From: a virus | Taxonomy: Duplodnaviria > Caudoviricetes | Strand: one strand, 5' to 3' | DNA: 64,000 bases | Virus record (IMG/VR): IMGVR_UViG_3300021431_000075 | Span: 416,001 to 480,000 of that record | Shown here: positions 4,416 through 59,887 of the stretch, in pieces | Layout of the letters: each line of letters starts with the position of its first letter | How positions within the stretch are numbered: the stretch's first letter is position 1 | Made by a program: the position numbers and the translations under genes | Notes under the pieces: generated by a model | What the model saw: the letters and a program-made list of their open reading frames with translations, nothing else | Told to the model about the DNA's origin: nothing | The model's database searches: none

Positions 4416-5903
4416 ATGCAAACAAATTTTTATTTTTTGTCGCTTGAAAAGACAAAGATACTTAAAGAAATCGGTTTAGATTTTGCTACGGTATGCAAAG
4501 AATATGGCTGGTTCTGGAACGAAATCGATGGTAATCTAATTGCTTCCAACCATCGACTTGATGAACTTGATGACGGGAAATACGTTCCCGCGCTTAATTC
4601 CGAACAGCTGCGTGAGTTTCTTCCGCTTGATATTTACACAAAAGAGTGCGGAAAGTGCTCATTGAATTTCGGTTCTGATATTATAAATGACGTGGAAGAG
4701 CAAATCGTGTCTTATGATGAATGTAAAGGTTCATGCTATCCGTATGTTACGTTTTCGGCAGAACATCTTGTTGATGCTATGTTTGACGCTATCGAGTATT
4801 GTCATAAGAATGGATTCTTGCAGCCGGATTCATATGTAGATAAAGAAATGTTAGATAATCAAACTATACAAAATGATAAAGAAATGAGCAATAATGTAGA
4901 AAAAAGTGAATTTAAGTGTTTTGAAAGCAAGTTCTGTATTGTATATCATAAAGAAGATAATGATGGCTTGTTCTCTATGGCATTGATATTCAATTACTTG
5001 ACTGATGAATTGCATATTGATAAGAATGATATTCGTCTTATCGGAGCAGATTATCAGGATATGAAGAAACTTGACATTGATGAATTGTGCCAGAAAAATG
5101 AGGGAATCATAATGACTGACATATCATTCAATGAATTCTCAAAGATAAAGGAGATATACAAGAAGAAGAGAAGCAAATTCTGGTGGTTTGACCATCATGC
5201 TCCTATCATTAAGCAGAGTCTTTTGGAGAAGTGTGAAGACATCAACGGCATTCGCGATACCAGCAGAAGCGCGATTATGAATGTATATAACTATCTTTAC
5301 GATCCGTTCAATGAGAAGTATAATAGCAAGAGTCCGGATATTGAGTTGTTGCGTATTCTATCTGCGTGGGATTCTTTCTCGTTCTTGAGAGAAGGTTATG
5401 ATATTGATTATGTTCGAAATGTGAATGTCGGCGTAAGCAATGATTTTATGCTTGATAAAGATAGAATCATCGAGTTTGTGAGAGAACTTCTTAAGATGAA
5501 TGCCGATGTGCAGAAAGATATTATTATGGATTTCTATGACAGTGGCAAGTCATTCAATAAGGTTATCGAGAGCAAGGATGCAAAGTTGATTGAGGATTTT
5601 GGTCAGGTATATTCTTTGGAAGAAAATGGCGAGCCGGTCATGGTTCTTTATATGCAGGGCGGTAGCAACAGTTTGATGTTCAAGAGCGTTAGCGATAAAT
5701 ACAAGCACGGCGCAGTCATCAAACATTTGAAAGATGGGAACTTCTCCATACATTTGTATAACACAGATACAAAGTATGATTTGGAGATGGACTGTGGTGC
5801 ATATCTGAAGAGCAAGTATGGCGGCGGCGGTCACAAGGGTGCAGCCGGAGCACAGATTTCGGAAGATGTGTTTTTGAAGATAATGAGAACTAAAAAGATT
5901 TGA
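4416..5903 (+). CDS. DHH/DHHA1 phosphoesterase with ~155-aa N-terminal extra domain
   Basis: HKEDNDG, TD, FDHH, GGGGHKGAAG motifs. Confidence 0.85.
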   Translation: MQTNFYFLSLEKTKILKEIGLDFATVCKEYGWFWNEIDGNLIASNHRLDELDDGKYVPALNSEQLREFLPLDIYTKECGKCSLNFGSDIINDVEEQIVSYDECKGSCYPYVTFSAEHLVDAMFDAIEYCHKNGFLQPDSYVDKEMLDNQTIQNDKEMSNNVEKSEFKCFESKFCIVYHKEDNDGLFSMALIFNYLTDELHIDKNDIRLIGADYQDMKKLDIDELCQKNEGIIMTDISFNEFSKIKEIYKKKRSKFWWFDHHAPIIKQSLLEKCEDINGIRDTSRSAIMNVYNYLYDPFNEKYNSKSPDIELLRILSAWDSFSFLREGYDIDYVRNVNVGVSNDFMLDKDRIIEFVRELLKMNADVQKDIIMDFYDSGKSFNKVIESKDAKLIEDFGQVYSLEENGEPVMVLYMQGGSNSLMFKSVSDKYKHGAVIKHLKDGNFSIHLYNTDTKYDLEMDCGAYLKSKYGGGGHKGAAGAQISEDVFLKIMRTKKI

Positions 5904-5909
5904 TTTTTT

Positions 5910-6422
5910 ATGCCAAGGAATGTTGAGATTGATGATACTCTTGCCGATGAGATTTTCAATGAGCGGATGGATAGCGAGTTTGAGAAAATCAAGCAAGAGC
6001 GAGATGACTACAAGAACAAGTACTTATATGCGGTTGCCGATAAGGAAAATGCAATAAAGCGCATAAAGTCGCAGATGAATATTGCTGCTGATGCAGAAAA
6101 GACGAACATCATAAAAGAGTTCCTTGTTATCTGTGATGATTTGAATCTGGCATTGTCGTTTAATGAACATTGTGATGAACCGACTGCATTGAAAGAAGGT
6201 TTCGTGAGTCTCTATAATGAGTTTATGGACGTTCTTGACAAGTTGAATGTCAGGAGGATGAAAGATGTTGTCGGTTCAGAATTCACAACAGACCTGTATG
6301 AAGCGGTTTCTATGAAAGACTGTGGAAATGATATGTCCGGAAAGGTCGTTGAATGTCTGGTAGACGGCTATTTTATCGGTGATGATGTCCTGAGGCATGC
6401 AAAAGTCGTTGTAGGAAAATAA
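5910..6422 (+). CDS. grpE: Nucleotide exchange factor GrpE
   Basis: YLYAVADKEN..KR helix, DDL, F...YEAV, GY..GD.VLRHAKVVV C-terminus. Confidence 0.85.
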   Translation: MPRNVEIDDTLADEIFNERMDSEFEKIKQERDDYKNKYLYAVADKENAIKRIKSQMNIAADAEKTNIIKEFLVICDDLNLALSFNEHCDEPTALKEGFVSLYNEFMDVLDKLNVRRMKDVVGSEFTTDLYEAVSMKDCGNDMSGKVVECLVDGYFIGDDVLRHAKVVVGK

Positions 6423-6646
6423 TGAGCAATGGAAAGAAATATATAATTAAATGCTTGAAGATTTTGTCAAGCGCATTTCTCGGCTTGTTGAGCGCGTTGA
6501 TTGTAATTTGTTTCGTTTATGCAGTCAATCAGATTTTTCTGTTGAGTATTTGTGATTCTTCGATATGGAATTCATATTTGTTTTGGATTGTATTGGTTGC
6601 AATTATTGACGGAATCTTAATCCACAAGGCTCTTTATGACGATTGA
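6422..6646 (+). CDS. Small two-TM membrane protein
   Basis: Two hydrophobic stretches; TAATG overlap with grpE stop. Confidence 0.6.
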   Translation: MSNGKKYIIKCLKILSSAFLGLLSALIVICFVYAVNQIFLLSICDSSIWNSYLFWIVLVAIIDGILIHKALYDD

Positions 6647-6650
6647 TTTG

Positions 6651-6688
6651 AAAAGCGGCAGATGATTTTGTTTATTTGCCGCTTTTTT
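6651..6688 (+). terminator. Intrinsic terminator
   Basis: AAAAGCGGCA...TGCCGCTTTTTT. Confidence 0.75.
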
Positions 6689-6711
6689 GATTTAATTGTG
6701 GTTCAATAGTT

Positions 6712-6740
6712 TAAACTATTGATTGATTATGTGGTATACT
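6712..6740 (+). promoter_or_regulatory. TAAACT-N16-GTATACT promoter
   Basis: Exact motif directly after a terminator, heading the 6.9-12.2 kb operon. Confidence 0.65.
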
Positions 6741-6922
6741 TTTAATAAAAGATATTCATCATTCGAGAACTCTGTTAGTCAGAGCAAGATAGTGAGTGAC
6801 AGTTCTTTCTCCATCTTCAAAAAGAGGATGAAAGATGCTGTTAAAAATAATGAAGAGAATAGAAGAAATGCTTTGGATTCGATTCGAAACATAGTTATTA
6901 CATAAAGAAATAAAGGATTTAC

Positions 6923-7219
6923 ATGTATACGCATCTTAATACGATTGAATGGGACTTTATACTAAAGTCTAAGAAGAACGAGAATCTCAACTATTTTTCT
7001 AACAAGATTTATGGTCAGATTCTTGCAGAACTTAAGTGCAAGGGCGGTTTCGAGTACTACTTGTGTACGATTGTGCAGATGAACAATGATACGGTCGGGA
7101 ACTATATCGGCTGTGTGAAGTCTGATGCCGCAAGCGGAAAGGAAGCTAACATCCTTGTATACGACAGAGACCGCCAGAGAGACCGTGTGTTGTCTCTTAA
7201 TGACGAGAACTATCTTTAA
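6923..7219 (+). CDS. Hypothetical protein
   Basis: 98-aa ATG ORF in co-directional operon. Confidence 0.6.
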   Translation: MYTHLNTIEWDFILKSKKNENLNYFSNKIYGQILAELKCKGGFEYYLCTIVQMNNDTVGNYIGCVKSDAASGKEANILVYDRDRQRDRVLSLNDENYL

Positions 7220-7237
7220 AATCAGTTTTAATATGAG

Positions 7238-8134
7238 TTGGAGATTGTAACAAGACTTGTCCATGACGATCCTGAACGTTCGAGGATTTACAAGTTGCCT
7301 GAATGCAATCTGATGATGCAGATTGTCAGCCGTGATGACTCTGAATACTTGGCAAAGTTCAAGAGTCTGCTGCAGAAGCATTGCCTTTATATTCTGGTAG
7401 GTTCTGAAACATTGTCTGCAAGAAGAAAGATATACATCGGACAGACCGCAGATATGTTAAAGAGGTTTCAGCAGCATGCAAAGAAGAAAGATTTCTGGAC
7501 TGAATGCATGGTTTTCACTTTGATTCGTTCACAGTTCAACCGGTCCCAGATTCAATATCTGGAATACTTGTCGATATTGACAGCGATGGAGTGTGGAGTT
7601 TATGACATGGTCCAGAACTATCAGATTCCGAAGAAGCCGTTCCTTGACGAGACTGATACTGCGTTTGCCGAGAAGGTTTTTGACGATATTCGGTTGCTTT
7701 CTCTGTTTGCCGGTTTCCGGATGTTCAGAAACAAGGTCATAGACTTGAACGATGTCTCGGTGAGTGGTTCCCATACGATGCTGTCAAGAATTGTATATGA
7801 GTACAGCGCGTCGAAGCCTGCTGTTAGTTCGGATTATGTTTCTGAATGTGAGAATGACGAGTCTCTCGTGTCATATGAACTGAAGGGAACAGACTATTAT
7901 GCAAAGGCGGTCTATACGAATGACGGAAGCGTGATGGTGATGCCGTTCGGCTACATATCCCGGAATGTCAAGTTGCCGGATGACTTGTGCCGGTTCTTGC
8001 CGGATGTGAGCGCGTGCATAGATTCTGGTGGCTATATAAAGAGCGGCTTTGTTGTTGACAGTCTTGATGTTGCCGGTGAGATGGTTACTGGCTGTAAAGA
8101 AAATAAGTGGAAAAAAATAGTAACATATATTTAG
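7238..8134 (+). CDS. GIY-YIG nuclease domain protein with DUF4357-like C-terminus
   Basis: LYIL...IYIGQT...RFQQH...YLE; C-terminal GEMVTG...W. Confidence 0.7.
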   Translation: MEIVTRLVHDDPERSRIYKLPECNLMMQIVSRDDSEYLAKFKSLLQKHCLYILVGSETLSARRKIYIGQTADMLKRFQQHAKKKDFWTECMVFTLIRSQFNRSQIQYLEYLSILTAMECGVYDMVQNYQIPKKPFLDETDTAFAEKVFDDIRLLSLFAGFRMFRNKVIDLNDVSVSGSHTMLSRIVYEYSASKPAVSSDYVSECENDESLVSYELKGTDYYAKAVYTNDGSVMVMPFGYISRNVKLPDDLCRFLPDVSACIDSGGYIKSGFVVDSLDVAGEMVTGCKENKWKKIVTYI

Positions 8135-8138
8135 AAAG

Positions 8139-8753
8139 ATGAGATTTTTTTTGGACATTCTGAAAAGTGCCATCCTTGCCGGTTGCGCGATTGGGCTGGG
8201 TGGCTATGTCTATCTTACGGTAGGAGGGCTTGCCGGGGCAGTCTTGTTCTCGTTCGGACTTTTGACTGTTTGCTTCTACCAGTTGCACCTGTTTACAGGA
8301 AAGTCCGGATTCTACACGAAAGAGAACATTCTCTACCTGTTCAGTGCGGTTCTGTTTGGAAATGTAATCGGTTGCTGGTTTGTCAGTCTTGTTGCATCTG
8401 ATGCTGTTGTTGCTGCAAGCGCGACTCTTGTTGCTGGCAGGCTTGCTGCTGGGAACTTGACGAACTTCTTGCTTGCTATTCCGTGCGGATTCATCATGAC
8501 AGCCGCTGTTACTGCAGTGAAGCCGGATAAGAACAATCACAGGAACTACTTCCTTATTCTGTACGGCGTTCCGTTGTTCATCATGTGCGGATTCAGGCAC
8601 AGCATCGCGGATGCTTTCTACTATCTTGCGTCCGGAGTTTATTCAACAGAACTTCTGGTGACATGGGTTTTCATAGTTATTGGAAACTATGTCGGTTGCA
8701 ATTTTTACAGATTGTTTAATGATTTTGACACGAAGCCTGTCAATATCTCATAA
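8139..8753 (+). CDS. Formate/nitrite transporter (FNT) family channel
   Basis: Six hydrophobic helices, LFTG, GN..G, GFRHSIAD, GNYVG. Confidence 0.85.
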   Translation: MRFFLDILKSAILAGCAIGLGGYVYLTVGGLAGAVLFSFGLLTVCFYQLHLFTGKSGFYTKENILYLFSAVLFGNVIGCWFVSLVASDAVVAASATLVAGRLAAGNLTNFLLAIPCGFIMTAAVTAVKPDKNNHRNYFLILYGVPLFIMCGFRHSIADAFYYLASGVYSTELLVTWVFIVIGNYVGCNFYRLFNDFDTKPVNIS

Positions 8754-8766
8754 GACTTTATTGATT

Positions 8767-9567
8767 ATGCAGAAAACTTCATACAATAGCATTAGCGTCT
8801 ATACGTTTGATGATGTGAGCAACGTCATCGTCTGTGGAGACATTCATGGCGAGTTCAACGAAATCGTCAATAAGATATGTGTCCAGAACAAGATACAGGA
8901 TTCTGTGATTATCATTGCAGGCGATTGCGGGTTCGGTTTCAACAAGAGAGAGTATTATACGAATATGTATAACAAGAACTCGCGCAGGCTTGAGGAGTCG
9001 AACAACTACATATTGTGCATCCGTGGAAACCATGACGACCCCGAATACTACAGTTATGGAGGCTTGTTCGAGAAGAAGCGGATGGTGTGCGTTCCCGATT
9101 ATTCTGTGATAGAGGTTGCCGGAAGAACCATATTGTGCATCGGGGGAGCGGTCTCGATAGACAGGAAGTACAGGATTTATGAAGAGATTCGAATGAACAT
9201 GCATTCTGCAACCAAGACGAAGTCTGTGTACTGGTGTTCTGAGATGCCTGTGTTTGACAGTATGAAGCTTTCCGATGTCATTGGACGATTCGTCATAGAC
9301 ACGGTTGTCACGCATACGGCTCCGTCATTCTGCGAGAAGGTTCAAAAGACAGGCATCGAGGAATGGTGCAAGTTCGATGAAAATCTTTCGGACGATTTGG
9401 ATGCAGAAAGAAAGACGATGGATAAGATATATGATTATCTTGTCGAGAAGAAGCAGCCGATAAGAGACTGGGTGTATGGTCATTTCCACTGGTCTTGGAA
9501 TGCACGGATTGATGGAATCAATTTTACAATGCTCAATATCAATGAGTTAAAAACACTTTATTGTTAG
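8767..9567 (+). CDS. Calcineurin-like metallophosphoesterase
   Basis: GDIHG, GDCG, GNHD, GGAVSID, THTAP, GHFH; start moved to ATG 8767 after the FNT stop. Confidence 0.85.
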   Translation: MQKTSYNSISVYTFDDVSNVIVCGDIHGEFNEIVNKICVQNKIQDSVIIIAGDCGFGFNKREYYTNMYNKNSRRLEESNNYILCIRGNHDDPEYYSYGGLFEKKRMVCVPDYSVIEVAGRTILCIGGAVSIDRKYRIYEEIRMNMHSATKTKSVYWCSEMPVFDSMKLSDVIGRFVIDTVVTHTAPSFCEKVQKTGIEEWCKFDENLSDDLDAERKTMDKIYDYLVEKKQPIRDWVYGHFHWSWNARIDGINFTMLNINELKTLYC

Positions 9568-9574
9568 ATTTGTC

Positions 9575-9907
9575 ATGCTATGTTATCTTCCATATACTAA
9601 AGGTGAAGGTTTTGAAGAACTGGTTCGAACTGCACAACATGCTATTGATTCACAAGACAATAACAGAAAGCAAAGACAATGGCTTCAGAAGATTTTGGAT
9701 TTGCTGAAATATGGTAAATATGTGACAATACAAGACAATAAGGGTATGCCGAGAGACGTGATCGGAATTGCAAACGCGCATTCTTTTCTATCTTTCTTTG
9801 ATGTTTGCCATGAGATTTCATGGTTTGATTTGGATGTTGAGCCGATAGAGACCGTTAAATTGGAAGAAACCCATATTTCCTATGGTTTATCTTGCTTGTT
9901 TATTTGA
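9575..9907 (+). CDS. Hypothetical protein
   Basis: 110-aa ORF tightly packed in operon. Confidence 0.6.
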   Translation: MLCYLPYTKGEGFEELVRTAQHAIDSQDNNRKQRQWLQKILDLLKYGKYVTIQDNKGMPRDVIGIANAHSFLSFFDVCHEISWFDLDVEPIETVKLEETHISYGLSCLFI

Positions 9908-9928
9908 TTTTTAATAACTTTGCAGACT

Positions 9929-10639
9929 ATGGTCAAAAAGAAGAATTCAAATGCACTTAAAGATTATGATTTGGCTGACATATATCTTTGGATTGTGCGA
10001 GGGCTTGACTGGAATGAGATACAGAAGTCCTATATTATAATGAATGGAATAGATGCAGATATTAACAACACGGATGATGTTCGTGACTATGATGACATCA
10101 GTGTCGAATTGATGAAAGAATTGTTTTTGTTAATCGTTCAGTCTCTTGAGACATATGACAGCGATGCAGAAAGAGTTCTAATCAATAATTCGAAGAATTT
10201 TGTTGTCATGTTCGATCTCTATGATGATAAAGATGAGATAACTTGCATATATTGTCCTGATGTGTTTCATACCAGAATCAGGATTTCTGTTCCTGATGAT
10301 ACTGTTCCTGATAGGAGAAATAAATTATTCTCTGCTATTAGAAATTCAGAGAAAAATCGTTATGCGTTGAATGTGTATAATATGTACAATGTATGCGATA
10401 AGATGAACTATTGTTATGATTCTCGCGATGATATGATTCATGGTTTGACAGATTGCATGGTCGGTGCGTTCGATGCATCCAAAGAAAGCGAATATGGCGG
10501 TTTTTGCGCAAGTGGAAGATTCATTGTCAGATATGATAAGATTGAGGATATGTTTGATATCATATTCACGATTGAAGAAGAAACGACTCCGTTGACAGTG
10601 TCATCAAGTGCGACTATCAATTTGCAATTATTAAATTAA
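9929..10639 (+). CDS. Hypothetical protein
   Basis: ORF in operon; ATG at 9929 chosen. Confidence 0.6.
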   Translation: MVKKKNSNALKDYDLADIYLWIVRGLDWNEIQKSYIIMNGIDADINNTDDVRDYDDISVELMKELFLLIVQSLETYDSDAERVLINNSKNFVVMFDLYDDKDEITCIYCPDVFHTRIRISVPDDTVPDRRNKLFSAIRNSEKNRYALNVYNMYNVCDKMNYCYDSRDDMIHGLTDCMVGAFDASKESEYGGFCASGRFIVRYDKIEDMFDIIFTIEEETTPLTVSSSATINLQLLN

Positions 10640-10646
10640 GACGAAT

Positions 10647-12224
10647 ATGTTGACAATCCGCACAAGTGTTATAAGAGAGGGTTCATTCAAGGAAAAACTT
10701 CTTAAGATCTTTGGATTTTTCATAAATCCTTCTCATAAGTCAAGTTTGCTAAACAAGCTGAAAGAAAAGAACAAGGAACTTTATAAAAGGTGTGCATATG
10801 GTGCCTTGGATAATGTTTCTTATCTTGACTATAAGTATTGCTATGATTCGGACCCTGATAAGAAGTTGACCAGTTTTCCATATGTTCAAAGCGAGGAAGT
10901 TAATGTTTTGAACAGCAAGGGAGAATTTGTCAAGACGGTAATGGAGTATTTTTTCTATGAGACCGAGTTTGACGAGAGCGACGGCGGCGTACAGGTTCCA
11001 AAGAGCAAGAAATACTATCTTGTTGATCCGGAAGGAATTCATTATCTATATAATTTTCCAAAGAAGTACATGTTCGGCGGCTATAGTTTGAACAGATTTG
11101 TGAAATATGCATATATTCCAGAAATCGGTTTCTGCTATGTAAGAGATAAGCATATTGTAAAGTTATTGATTGGCAACAAGTTCAAATATAAGTTTATGGC
11201 AATCACTAACAAGTGGTTGTATTTCATCTACAGAATCAGGAAGTGTATAGAGAATGCATTGCGTTCCATCATCAATTTCAACTATAAATTCTTGCATACG
11301 ATAGATTCTATCATATTGTGCATAAGGTTTCCGTTCTTGTATCCGAGAAACAGGTTCACCGGACTTCATTATAATAATTGGAAGATGCTTGATAAGATAA
11401 AGGAGTTGAGAAAAGAGAGTGTTGTATCTTTCAATGTATCTGAGACTATAGAGCCTTATGAGATTCAAGGTTATCTGTCCGGCATAGAAGTCCAGAAGAA
11501 ACTCGATGATGAATACGAGAAGATGTTTGACGGCATCAGGCATGATGACCAATATGTGTATTATTTCATTGATGGCGATGGCAATGAAATCCCTGTCATG
11601 AGAACATATAAGAACATCAAGTACAGGTTCAAGATTCTTGACAAGAACGAGCAGCCGAGAATGCTTGTGTGGACTGAAATCAATGGCGGAATATGGATTG
11701 ACATTACGGACGAGAAGCCGTTATTTAAATCAAAAGATGGTGAACCAAAAGAGTCAAGTTATTATAGGGTTGTCATTAACAAGAAACTTTCAAGGAAAGC
11801 GGACAGGATTGAATGGTTCCACAAGTATGTTCTGAACACGATTTTCTCGATTCCGAAGTATAACGAACTTGACGCGATGGAAGAAGGATGGAGACGCAGG
11901 TTCGGAATGGACATGATGAAAGAACTCAGGAAGCAACTCTCCAAAGAGAACTATTTGTACAAGTTCAGGATTACGCAAATCAAGGAGAAGTTCGGCGGAC
12001 TTCGTTTCTATGTGGAATGTGCGTCAAAGGAAGTGTATAGCATTATCGATAAGTACGGGAGCATGTCATTTGGCATATGCATAAATTGTGGAAAAGATGC
12101 GAAGTACAAGACGACCGGTTGGGTTCTACCGTACTGCGAGGAGTGCATAAAAGAACACAATGCCGGTAGTTATGTTCCGATTGATGAAGATGAACCTGAA
12201 TGTGATGAAGAAGATGGCGAATAA
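10647..12224 (+). CDS. Hypothetical phage protein with C-terminal QIKEKFGGLRFY and CxxC..CxxC domain
   Basis: Motif common in uncharacterised phage proteins; Zn-ribbon cysteines. Confidence 0.65.
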   Translation: MLTIRTSVIREGSFKEKLLKIFGFFINPSHKSSLLNKLKEKNKELYKRCAYGALDNVSYLDYKYCYDSDPDKKLTSFPYVQSEEVNVLNSKGEFVKTVMEYFFYETEFDESDGGVQVPKSKKYYLVDPEGIHYLYNFPKKYMFGGYSLNRFVKYAYIPEIGFCYVRDKHIVKLLIGNKFKYKFMAITNKWLYFIYRIRKCIENALRSIINFNYKFLHTIDSIILCIRFPFLYPRNRFTGLHYNNWKMLDKIKELRKESVVSFNVSETIEPYEIQGYLSGIEVQKKLDDEYEKMFDGIRHDDQYVYYFIDGDGNEIPVMRTYKNIKYRFKILDKNEQPRMLVWTEINGGIWIDITDEKPLFKSKDGEPKESSYYRVVINKKLSRKADRIEWFHKYVLNTIFSIPKYNELDAMEEGWRRRFGMDMMKELRKQLSKENYLYKFRITQIKEKFGGLRFYVECASKEVYSIIDKYGSMSFGICINCGKDAKYKTTGWVLPYCEECIKEHNAGSYVPIDEDEPECDEEDGE

Positions 12225-25200: not shown

Positions 25201-25944
25201 ATGAACGATAGGATTTTTGAAGATTTCAGAAAGTTTGCAACAAACCAGAAGTTTAACGGTCAGTATATGACTGGTGATTTTCTTGATGATTACAGAAAGC
25301 ATGGCATAAGCGATTATATAACTCCGTATGTCATCGAGCATTCAAGAGACAACGGCGTGTCAATAGACATTTTCTCCCGCCTCATCAGGGATAAGATTAT
25401 ATTTTTGGGCGATGAGATTGATGACAATCTTGCGAATGTGATTTCTGCGCAGCTTTTGTTCTTGAAGAATGAGAATAGCGAGTCTGATATTTCTTTGTAT
25501 TGCAATAGTCCGGGCGGTAGCGTATATGCCGGCATGGAAATTGTAGCGACAATGCATTATATTCCTAATAAGATTCAGACAGTTTGTCTTGGACTGTGTG
25601 CGTCAATGGCATCAGTTATTCTTGCATGTGGAGATTACGGCAACAGGTTCATCCAAAACACTGGAACAGTTATGATTCATCAGCCGATTACCGGAGTTCA
25701 GGGACCTGCTGCTGATATACAGATTGTTTCTGATGAAGTTAATCGTCTGAAGAAAGAGTTGTTCAATATATTAGCAGACCGCACAGGACATACATATGAT
25801 GACATCTGTACGATAGCCCAGAGAGACAACTGGATGTCTGCGCAGGATGCTCTTGCTTTCAATATCGTTGATGGTATTCTTCCGACTAATCCAGCAAAGA
25901 TGATTAAGTATGCAGACTGGAAAAAGAGCAAAAATGATGAATAG
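25201..25944 (+). CDS. clpP: ATP-dependent Clp protease proteolytic subunit
   Basis: DIFSRL, NSPGGS, CASMAS, MIHQP, RDNWM. Confidence 0.92.
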   Translation: MNDRIFEDFRKFATNQKFNGQYMTGDFLDDYRKHGISDYITPYVIEHSRDNGVSIDIFSRLIRDKIIFLGDEIDDNLANVISAQLLFLKNENSESDISLYCNSPGGSVYAGMEIVATMHYIPNKIQTVCLGLCASMASVILACGDYGNRFIQNTGTVMIHQPITGVQGPAADIQIVSDEVNRLKKELFNILADRTGHTYDDICTIAQRDNWMSAQDALAFNIVDGILPTNPAKMIKYADWKKSKNDE

Positions 25945-25950
25945 TTGACC

Positions 25951-26532
25951 ATGGGAAAGGTTTATTTCCGCACTGGACCGATGAACTGCGGAAAGTCAAT
26001 GCATCTGATTGCTGCTGTCTATAATTTCAGAGAGCGTGGCATTGAAGTGGTTGTCATCAAGCCGTCAATAGACACGAGAGATGGCGGAGTCATCAAGAGC
26101 AGAGCTCTGAACACGACTCTTGACGTTATATCGTATAAAGCAGAAGACAACATCTATGACGACTTGAAGGATAAGGTTTCTGAAAATACTTGGGTTGTTT
26201 GTGACGAGAGCCAGTTCTTGACTGCTGAACAAGTCAATCAGCTTGCAAGACTTGCAGATGATGTCGGTTTGAATGTGATTTGCTATGGTCTCAAGACAGA
26301 TTTCAATACAAATCTGTTCCCAGGTTCCAAGCGACTTCTTGAAATAGCGGACACGATAGAAGAGTTGAAATCAACTTGCAGTTGCGGAAGAAAGGCGATG
26401 ATTAATGCACGAGTTGATTCATCCGGAAATATTGTAACAGATGGACCTCAGATTGAATGTGGCGGAAATGAGAAATATTTGACTCTATGCAGGAAATGTT
26501 ATTATCAAAAGTTAAAAGAGCAGGAATGTTAA
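25951..26532 (+). CDS. tdk: Thymidine kinase
   Basis: GPMNCGKS P-loop, DESQFL, YGLKTDF, CSCG...Y..LCRKC. Confidence 0.92.
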   Translation: MGKVYFRTGPMNCGKSMHLIAAVYNFRERGIEVVVIKPSIDTRDGGVIKSRALNTTLDVISYKAEDNIYDDLKDKVSENTWVVCDESQFLTAEQVNQLARLADDVGLNVICYGLKTDFNTNLFPGSKRLLEIADTIEELKSTCSCGRKAMINARVDSSGNIVTDGPQIECGGNEKYLTLCRKCYYQKLKEQEC

Positions 26533-26731
26533 CAGGTTCCTGCTCTTTGTTTCAATGAAATAAATAAAAAGTTAGAAGTCAATCTTATTTAATTTTGTAA
26601 TTTTTGTTAGATAAATAGTCAAATATTAAAGAAATTCAACAAAACAGCAGAACAAATGAAAATGACTCACAACATTAAGAAAATGACTATGTCATACTTC
26701 AGATAAATAGAAAAAGGAAGGTTAGATACTA

Positions 26732-26898
26732 CCGGATATGAATGCGGGTGGCTTCGCGGGACGCGTTGGAATGCAGCCGTGCGGCTATACTTGCAAGGGG
26801 ATTCGGAAAGTCTGCCGACTTGAAACCTCTGATTTTCTATTAGGTTAGAAAGTTTCGCTGGGAATTCGTTTCCGGACTTTACAGAAGAGTATTCTGTA
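26732..26898 (+). ncRNA. Candidate structured non-coding RNA, family unknown
   Basis: GC-rich island in AT-rich spacer with nested helices, behind late promoters, followed by a hairpin. Confidence 0.5.
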
Positions 26899-26952
26899 TG
26901 TTACATTTGTCTGCATAGATAATGTATGTACTAAAATATCTTATAATAGAAC

Positions 26953-27639
26953 ATGTCACTATTTGATGAAATAGAGTTCGAAGACGACATTTTAAGTTAT
27001 GAAGAGGAACATTTGCTTTTTGTCGGAGATCTTGTTTTGTACGAGATTCCGACAGACCGCTTTTATATAGCATCATATAGCGCTTTTGCTTATTCACCTT
27101 CTATTGCGCTTGACAACAAGGACAATCAGATAGTTATGGGTGTTTCTTTGACTGAAGCAGACTTGAAAGATGAGATTGTTTATAGTGATGTATTGATGAT
27201 GAACTTCTTGCTTGCAGAGCCTTTGAAACTGCCGTTTATGTATTATGGAAAAGATAAGCGTCCTTATATTCAGGCATATGTCAAGAATCAGTTCAAGATA
27301 TATGTTAATAAGTTCAGGAAGGAATGTCCGGACTATGAGAAGATAAAGACGTTGAAGATATATATGCCGAGAATTGACGACTTGAAGAAGTTCAAGCACA
27401 ATAAAGATTCTTATAGTTGCATAAGCGATTATCTTGGAAATGAGCCTGTTGATAAGTTCAGGGAACGACTTGAAAAGAGCAAGGTCTATGCATTGGACAA
27501 GAATAATAATCTATGCAGATTCATTATGAATTCTGAATGTCCGGAAGAAAAGGAAGTTGAAGAACTTGATTATGACACCTGTGAGTTTTTGTGTGTGTTC
27601 CGTGATGTTGTTGTCCGCAAGCAAGGTGACTTGTATTGA
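26953..27639 (+). CDS. Hypothetical protein
   Basis: 228-aa ATG ORF. Confidence 0.65.
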   Translation: MSLFDEIEFEDDILSYEEEHLLFVGDLVLYEIPTDRFYIASYSAFAYSPSIALDNKDNQIVMGVSLTEADLKDEIVYSDVLMMNFLLAEPLKLPFMYYGKDKRPYIQAYVKNQFKIYVNKFRKECPDYEKIKTLKIYMPRIDDLKKFKHNKDSYSCISDYLGNEPVDKFRERLEKSKVYALDKNNNLCRFIMNSECPEEKEVEELDYDTCEFLCVFRDVVVRKQGDLY

Positions 27640-46587: not shown

Positions 46588-46649
46588 GTTTTCTTTCATT
46601 TTTGTGACAATGATAATAAATATCTTATAATGAAAAATAAGAGCAACTT

Positions 46650-59683: not shown

Positions 59684-59887
59684 ACAATCAAATGCAAATG
59701 TACATTCATCTTTATTATAAGATATTTATCTTAATGATTGAAAATGATGCATTTTGATGAAATTAAGAAAATAAAAACCGGGCTTCCTTAAAAAGAAAGC
59801 CCGGAAAATGTTTAATTTAAAAATTTTTGCTGATCTAAAAAACCATTTTGTCGCATTTCACAACGAAACAAAAAGTAGTATAATGTA

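Follow-up and report, generated by a model that had tools for sequence, protein, structure and literature searches.

The question raised by this locus is what is encoded by a GC-rich block (26715-26884) that lies behind three ATAAATA boxes in an intergenic part of a large phage genome. The window, that is, the whole stretch of 64,000 nucleotides that was analysed, comprises bases 416001-480000 of a virus record of 673,114 bp with direct terminal repeats and 40.6% G+C. A sequence-only reading had described the block as a multi-helix RNA behind three tandem promoters, outside the known RNA families, and had suggested either a decoy, tRNA-like or packaging-associated phage RNA or a cis-regulator of the gene at 26953. 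The explanation that we consider very likely is that the region from about 26715 to 26948 is the guide-RNA (omega RNA/reRNA) scaffold gene of an IS607 transposon that has, as its second gene product, a TnpB/Cas12f-like protein lacking the zinc finger, the copy in the window being a deletion derivative (Table 1). This explanation is carried by the repeat structure, the gene neighbourhood, the fold of the protein, the covariation of the RNA and a right boundary common to the copies.

Table 1. Features of the window copy and of its two relatives in the same genome (window positions unless marked genome)
Feature	Position	Strand	Remark
Copy A (window copy)	26554-26948 (395 bp)	+	left end, last 23 tnpB codons and whole RNA
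Copy B, left end	genome 77284-77208	-	97% identical to window 26554-26629
Copy B, RNA part	genome 75154-74833	-	91% identical to window 26631-26948
Copy C	genome 614768-615008		73% identical from 26701 onward; orphan
ATAAATA box 1	26560-26566	+	left junction; homology of all copies starts here
IS607-like left end	26567-26629	+	region upstream of tnpA
ATAAATA box 2	26611-26617	+	inside the IS607-like left end
tnpB-like 3' remnant	26631-26706	+	last 23 codons and stop
ATAAATA box 3	26703-26709	+	overlaps the tnpB stop codon; putative RNA promoter
P1 (long-range)	26715-22 with 26814-21	+	97% of cells paired; double changes in 4 of 6 pairs
P2	26732-35 with 26802-05	+	double changes in every pair
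P3	26744-48 with 26790-94	+	double changes in every pair
P4	26755-64 with 26773-81	+	RNAalifold helix
P5 hairpin, GAAAC...GUUUC	26822-35 with 26842-56	+	99.4% of cells paired; 5 pairs double-changed
P6 hairpin, CUGGGAA/UUUCCGG	26859-63 with 26870-74	+	double changes in 4 of 5 pairs
Conserved single strand ACUUUACAG	26876-26884	+	UUUACAG columns invariant
3' domain	26880-26930	+	hairpins H8 (26880-26898) and H9 (about 26895-26930), overlapping by a few bases
Right terminus CTAAAATATCTTATAATA	26931-26948	+	identical in A, B, L119, L130, L085, L115 and L126
Predicted guide GAACATGTCACTATTTGATG	26949-26968	+	alternatively 26939-26958 if the element ends at 26938

The ATAAATA heptamer was found 34 times in the window against 13.1 expected, a number reached in 0 of 100 shuffles, and 56% of its 262 copies genome-wide fall within the 10% of the DNA that lies outside ORFs of at least 100 aa. 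This enrichment and concentration outside long ORFs make the heptamer a credible promoter core, and the three boxes are all exactly where the sequence-only reading had placed them. Together with TCTTATAATA the heptamer forms a 17-mer, ATAAATATCTTATAATA, which has 23 exact copies in the genome and probably represents a phage promoter class consisting of an ATAAATA box and a TATAAT -10 element. Two of the copies are at window positions 46616-46632 (+) and 59713-59729 (-), and about 20 more are spread over the genome. Of these 17-mers, 78% are situated outside long ORFs, usually 9-40 nt before an ATG, and the last 12 nt of the 17-mer have 48 genome copies at one mismatch or fewer.

Matches to known RNA families were sought with several programs. 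ARAGORN reported no tRNA or tmRNA, and Rfam 15, run on the whole 64-kb window, gave zero matches at gathering score and only chance-level matches at E <= 10, the best of which inside the RNA was SAM-Chlorobi at 16.8 bits against a threshold of 35. No Rfam score at the gathering threshold was obtained for the RNA against RAGATH-18, HEARO, group I introns or riboswitches, and an IStron or group I intron was ruled out, the Rfam intron match being absent. BLAST of phage records in near and distant modes found no match. A pattern scan of IMG/VR for the conserved loop returned 23 matches, 0 of which were confirmed by nhmmer, and a scan of the same kind in metagenomes returned 11, of which four were real. 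The earlier statement that the RNA falls outside the known families is thus upheld by Rfam as regards the family; its kind, the TnpB omega RNA or reRNA, is already known.

The block is part of a repeat unit that is present in three copies in the 673-kb genome (A in the window, B and C elsewhere), the repetition being limited to the intergenic unit. The two parts of copy B that are homologous to copy A are separated by about 2.05 kb, and the left-end stretch stops 5 bp before the start of tnpA. Copy B is the intact element, of about 2.45 kb (genome 74.8-77.3 kb), in which an ATAAATA box is followed by tnpA, the tnpB-like gene (479 aa), an ATAAATA box that overlaps its stop codon, an RNA scaffold of about 235 nt and the right end. 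Both ORFs lie on the same strand as the RNA, which is directly 3' of the tnpB-like gene product's ORF, P0001. The upstream ORF encodes a serine transposase of 210 aa with a resolvase domain at residues 62-187, identified as an IS607 transposase by NCBIfam NF033518 (E 1e-51, 175 bits against a cutoff of 110).

In the window copy the transposase gene is missing. A remnant of the second gene was detected by tblastn, in which residues 455-477 of P0001 aligned at 83% identity with genome 442632-442700, a match to the end of the 479-aa ORF of copy B. The content of the copy B gap together with this remnant shows copy A to be a 395-bp deletion derivative, and the deletion runs from just before the tnpA start to tnpB codon 454. 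The 16-codon ORF (26656-26706) that had been pointed out ahead of the block does exist, but it is part of the last 23 codons of the deleted tnpB-like gene and not a leader peptide. Similarly, the boxes described as three tandem promoters are promoter-like, but two of them are part of the left end of the transposon, upstream of the tnpA gene that was lost.

The surroundings of the other two copies are unlike those in the window. Around copy B four ORFs of 680-706 aa are arrayed in tandem (L004:645-4826 and 7392-11511; genome 70.6-81.5 kb), two of which have WG beta-repeat Pfam matches, one below the Pfam threshold. Copy C (L005:4771-5007) has about 400 nt without a long ORF downstream, and a tyrosine recombinase gene with weak Pfam phage-integrase matches (L005:3596-4588, minus strand) is divergent from it at a distance of 180 nt; associations between TnpB and tyrosine recombinases have been reported (PMC10691335).

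The relationship of P0001 to known nucleases was studied at the level of sequence profiles and of predicted structure. P0001 (479 aa) and 46 members of its family gave no Pfam or NCBIfam match, OrfB_IS605 and OrfB_Zn_ribbon included, and P0001 has no Cys4 zinc finger and no CxxC pairs. Branches of TnpB without the C4 zinc finger are known, for example the virus-associated RIIIr-4 (PNAS 2023, PMC10691335), so that the missing Pfam match and the missing Cys4 motif do not exclude membership of the TnpB/Cas12 superfamily. A structure model built on the 46 family members (pLDDT 89.2, pTM 0.83) was compared with the PDB using Foldseek, and the best matches were all Cas12f, Cas12k, TnpB (ISFba1 and ISDra2) or Fanzor2, each with a probability of 1.00 over 415-500 columns, that is, over the full length; Cas12f and Cas12k were the best of these (E 4e-9, TM 0.42-0.50). 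The family profile also found PDB Cas12f sequences at E 2e-4. As modelled, P0001 has the bilobed fold, the split RuvC and the three acidic catalytic residues of the TnpB/Cas12 superfamily, D230 and D379 being invariant in the family and position 313 always acidic. Position 313, in RuvC-II, is Glu in 45 of the 46 members; P0001 and the four lineages closest to it have Asp. This Asp, standing in place of the family's catalytic Glu, makes the nuclease activity of the P0001 subclade uncertain. RIIIr-4 differs in turn at RuvC-III, where it has His and the P0001 family its invariant Asp (D379).

The P0001 family, with 615 cluster representatives, is frequent and multi-copy in large phage contigs. 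The same phage genome has three more TnpB-like paralogs, 30-33% identical (genome 327861-326593, 164443-163172 and 284502-283465, all on the minus strand), and four further IS607-type transposase genes, and none of these is accompanied by a homolog of the RNA.

Close relatives of P0001 (48-93% protein identity) were drawn from ENA, Logan and JGI contigs, and homologs of the RNA were located by nhmmer and a covariance model. Ten further metagenome homologs were obtained, giving a set of 13; loci with an RNA homolog are L085, L086, L115, L119, L125-L131, L112 and L114. At L085, L086, L115, L119 and L125-L131 the RNA starts 0-155 nt past the stop codon of a TnpB-like gene on the same strand, and an IS607 tnpA is located upstream at each locus except L119, whose contig begins inside tnpB. 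The RNA is directly 3' of a TnpB/Cas12f-like gene in nine of the 12 other copies, eight of them with the IS607 transposase and the ninth being L119. The independent metagenome contig L112 is identical to copy A, its flanks included. In L114 (NFZD01014556.1), from a distant phage, the region 5758-8176 has the ClpP-TK gene pair found at window 25201-26532, with proteins 43-61% identical to those of the window, and also, about 870 nt further downstream than TK, an orphan RNA; a TnpB-like gene is absent within 8 kb. Between this orphan and the RNA of L115, a full element, the identity is 93%. Together, the position and the sequence of the orphan suggest either retention with concerted evolution or a hot spot.

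These neighbourhoods bear directly on the suggestion that the block is an autonomous late phage RNA, such as a decoy, a tRNA-like or a packaging RNA, with no need of a transposon protein. Such an RNA would fit the promoter-like boxes upstream, the stable and conserved fold, and the orphans C and L114, which are hardly more than box plus RNA. However, the position directly 3' of the TnpB-like gene in nine of 12 copies speaks against it, as do the transposon-type boundary between unrelated flanks, the unrelated gene neighbourhoods and the absent tRNA, tmRNA and Rfam features. The constant linkage to the TnpB-like gene makes a free-standing phage RNA unlikely, and we regard this alternative, the one put forward by the sequence-only reading, as very improbable.

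Among more distant relatives of P0001, represented by 79 IMG/VR loci, nhmmer and covariance model R1 found no RNA homolog, and the RNA family thus appears restricted to the subclade with an identity of at least about 48%. An IS607 tnpA is directly upstream in 16 of these 79 loci. In distant members (L013, L020, L024, L043, L060 and others) the homology between paralogs stops 20-45 nt after the stop codon, and in them the guide RNA may be presumed to overlap the ORF, as it does for classical TnpB. With the right end so much nearer to the ORF in the distant members, the long external RNA of the present subclade looks derived.

The folding of the RNA was examined on both strands. The block at 26715-26884 folds better than shuffles on the plus strand only: the block after 26716 has a minimum free energy of -60.7 kcal/mol and z = -3.27 on the plus strand, equalled by 0 of 200 shuffles, against z = -1.72 on the minus strand. 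Both the G-U pairs and the fold z-scores indicate the plus strand, that is, the sense strand of tnpB. For covariation, 13 distinct sequences were aligned with MAFFT, and the RNAalifold consensus consists of six helices. The consensus pairs are formed in 92.6% of cells over the 13 sequences, compared with 29-48% when the partners are slid by 1-3 columns, and double-sided, compensatory changes occur in 23 pairs, compared with 4-11 in the slid controls; shuffles never reach the observed values. A set of eight sequences gave a picture that agrees with this one. The claim of a multi-helix RNA is thereby strongly supported, with a changed arrangement of the helices.

In the 5' domain (26715-26821, plus strand) P1 encloses P2, P3 and P4. 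The P5 loop CUAUUAGG is invariant, with loop insertions in L127 and L125, and P6 takes the form CUGCAG/CUGCGG in L085 and an AU-rich stem of 12 bp in L086. The two hairpins that follow ACUUUACAG vary in sequence among the homologs and are in turn followed by the tail CTAAAATATCTTATAATA; a hairpin of the H9 type is present, with differing sequence, in the minimum free energy folds of eight of eight homologs, and an alifold of the three copies shows compensatory pairs in the 3' domain. Covariation gives no support to two stems of the fold first drawn by eye: the 3' half of its closing stem (26732-43 with 26864-75) belongs to the local hairpin CUGGGAA/UUUCCGG, and in its inner stem GCGGGAC/GTTTCGC the partner of GUUUC is in fact GAAAC. 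Its AGGGGATTC/GAAACCTCT branch finds no support among the 13 homologs, while its stems GCGT/ATGC and TACAGAA/TTCTGTA are compatible with the data. An alternative pairing of AAAGTCTG with CGGACTTT, as a possible switch, had also been proposed from the letters of the window. An ORF of 36 aa (26738-26848) was rejected as a gene: it falls within the RNA helices, and in copy C a 1-nt deletion directly follows its ATG.

Between copies A and B there are six substitutions in paired columns, and pairing is kept in six of six cases; at five of the six differing pairs copy A has the weaker G-U, where copy B has G-C or A-U. Across the alignment of homologs, the compensatory changes pass through G-U intermediates on one strand, which indicates selection on an RNA fold and not on duplex DNA sites. 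This is relevant to the view that the block works at the level of DNA or mRNA, either as right-end sites for the serine transposase or as a 3'-UTR that stabilizes tnpB mRNA. The ends of IS607 elements do have subterminal transposase-binding repeats (PMC6188088), and the block does lie between the tnpB stop and the right end, but in A, C and L114, where tnpB is missing, the RNA is still present together with its own ATAAATA box, and we hold a role of this sort to be most unlikely.

The RNA is putatively transcribed from box 3, going by its position and conservation. This box is invariant in eight of eight homologs aligned over it, with helix P1 beginning 6-12 nt downstream, and it is retained in C and L114, both orphans, as well as in L086, in which about 155 nt separate it from the end of the ORF. 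The H8 hairpin at 26880-26898 was considered as a terminator and rejected, as it has no T-run and a terminator scan found none, so that transcription can continue to the right end of the element.

The ends of the element were located by comparing copies in different flanks. On the right, homology between copies ends at ...CTTATAATA (...TATAATA), position 26948, beyond which the flanks differ in about 10 contexts. On the left, homology starts exactly at ATAAATA (26560), and the sequence before it differs in A, B, L130, L115, L126, L127, L086 and L085. If ATAAATA is counted as flank, it is present at eight of eight left junctions; if it is counted as element, the flanks have no common motif. Of two readings of box 1, namely as the first bases of the left end or as the left half of a captured phage promoter that would serve as a TAM-like target motif, the second is the more likely.

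Because ATAAATA plus TCTTATAATA makes up the genome 17-mer ATAAATATCTTATAATA, the data are most simply read as an insertion of the element into such a promoter. In that case its true ends would lie at about 26567 and 26938, TCTTATAATA would be the right half of the promoter, and the guide would run from 26939. Alternatively, both boxes would belong to the element and the guide would run from 26949. The last 10-17 nt of the nominal scaffold resemble the promoter of the phage itself; instead of RNA scaffold, they may be flank or promoter sequence. Insertion into a promoter is favoured by a filled and empty pair of sites for a second, unrelated IS607 element in the same genome (TnpA 39% identical), which occupies 307926-309905 and has an empty paralogous site at 302603-302640. 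The uninterrupted site is TTCTCAATAAATAT joined to CAATATAAACCATGCTG, the insertion being immediately after the AATAAATAT box, and the ATAAATAT box is outside the element. No empty site for copies A, B or C was found among paralogous sites of the genome, nor were relatives of ORF 26953, sought as an empty site, found in IMG/VR. A relative in which TK is followed directly by ...ATAAATATCTTATAATAGAACATG... would represent the empty site of copy A.

By the rule known from TnpB, the guide would be the right flank of the element. As predicted, it overlaps the start of ORF 26953-27639, and the predicted guides of the copies have no second match in the genome. The same arrangement allows another interpretation, in which the RNA is a cis-acting leader, riboswitch or antiterminator for the gene at 26953, as had earlier been suggested. 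It is placed between a promoter box and a gene start, and the right terminus, resembling the phage promoter consensus, may feed transcription into the next gene. However, the genes downstream of the copies are unrelated (an ORF of 228 aa of unknown function, a WG-repeat protein, a lysozyme and an acetyltransferase), L086 has a convergent gene next to the RNA, about 400 nt without a long ORF follow copy C, and no terminator-like site comes after the RNA. With downstream genes that differ from copy to copy and may even face the RNA, there is only a slight chance that cis-regulation accounts for it.

On the reading as guide-RNA scaffold, the following course of events is envisaged. The RNA would be transcribed from the ATAAATA box at 26703, and the transcript would pass the right end into the flank, which would provide a guide of 16-20 nt. 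The RNA of the orphan would be loaded in trans by the TnpB-like protein encoded at 75 kb, and the complex would cut the genomes of co-infecting relatives that have the same site but lack the element, after which recombinational repair would copy the element in (homing). In the intact element the captured box of the ATAAATA-TCTTATAATA promoter would both drive tnpA and act as the TAM-like motif. Function of the orphan in trans is a plausible proposal.

It is possible, though we think it doubtful, that the RNA family is that of a TnpB guide while the window copy is a decaying, functionless IS607 fragment that survives because it is young. IS remnants are common, both protein genes are deleted in this copy, its predicted guide has no second genomic match, and the weaker G-U pairs noted above are those of copy A. 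On the other hand, none of the six pairs changed between A and B is broken, neither the ATAAATA box nor either of the ends is damaged, the independent contig L112 has an identical copy between identical flanks, and an orphan is also found less than 1 kb from TK in the distant relative L114.

A further step would be that the orphans have been domesticated. The genome has three guide-RNA genes for one cognate TnpB-like gene, and one orphan lies just downstream of ClpP-TK both in the window phage and in L114. The orphans might be guide-only loci that act in trans, directing the single nuclease to the matching promoter-proximal sites of competing phages, or repressing or protecting these sites, a proposal that we rate as a long shot. 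If it were true, guide-only loci would be a natural step on the way from the guide of a transposon to a CRISPR-like arrangement with several guides, with insertion into the promoter consensus of the phage itself as its basis.

Returning to the scaffold reading, IS607 elements whose TnpB reRNA lies wholly downstream of the ORF are documented (PMC11061315), and the system described here resembles in layout that of ISFba1, with its RAGATH-18-derived reRNA (PMC11061315, PDB 8iaz). Both are IS607 elements with a serine transposase followed by TnpB, both have a scaffold of about 190-240 nt wholly downstream of the ORF with several stem-loops that ends at the right end, the guide being taken from the flank (as predicted for the present element), and the TnpB of ISFba1 is among the structural matches of P0001. 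In contrast to ISFba1, the RNA here has no RAGATH-18 or other Rfam match and is directly preceded by a promoter-like ATAAATA box, and P0001 has 479 aa compared with 387, no Pfam OrfB match, no Cys4 zinc finger and Asp at RuvC-II. With ATAAATA at the left junction, AGGAG is improbable as the TAM.

The omega RNA system of ISDra2 and other IS200/IS605 TnpB proteins (PMC8612924; PDB 8exa, 8h1j) shares the protein fold superfamily and, on the proposed reading, the logic of an internal scaffold, a guide beyond the right end, a TAM in the left flank and homing by the cutting of empty sites. It has a Y1 transposase. The present element differs in having a serine recombinase, an RNA that does not overlap the tnpB ORF, and ends without subterminal palindromes. 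The sgRNA (tracrRNA:crRNA) of Cas12f is also a large multi-stem scaffold with a 3' guide, but no CRISPR array or repeat is present here and the guide would be set by the insertion site. The closest analogue of the window copy is provided by PATE-like derivatives, non-autonomous elements that keep the ends and the guide RNA and have no protein gene; protein-less IS200/IS605 elements carrying omega RNAs for use in trans are documented (bioRxiv 10.1101/2023.03.14.532601). TnpB, and TnpA for mobility, are presumably supplied in trans to such copies. The PATE-like elements are of IS200/IS605 type in a bacterium, whereas the present ones are of IS607 type in a 673-kb phage, and here two of the three RNA copies, C and the related L114, have no recognisable left end.

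The RNA family is therefore new and the protein clade poorly annotated, and both belong to a kind of system that is already known. A mysterious-looking phage RNA becomes a testable RNA-guided system made of a non-Rfam scaffold and a Pfam-invisible TnpB-like family, with a secondary structure backed by covariation, candidate positions for TAM and guide, and natural guide-only copies that are putatively served in trans. The data suggest that the ATAAATA promoters of this megaphage are themselves the insertion sites of its IS607 elements. This is relevant to the persistence of selfish elements in the genomes of phages and to marker exclusion when phages co-infect. As to annotation, structured RNAs of this sort that stand beside "hypothetical" genes of 450-480 aa in jumbo phages should be read as TnpB guide RNAs.

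Two minor observations were made on the metagenome loci. L129:4444-4533 and L130:4444-4617 carry the same element, but in L129, a 265-kb scaffold, about 84 nt are missing from within the RNA scaffold; the covariance-model match in L129 spans 90 nt only, and either natural truncation or a difference in assembly may account for this. The TnpB-like gene at L125:348-1775 equals its database protein only when TAG is read as Q, and in L085, L086, L127 and L128 the TnpB-like gene was called as two ORFs; some host phages of the element probably use a recoded TAG.
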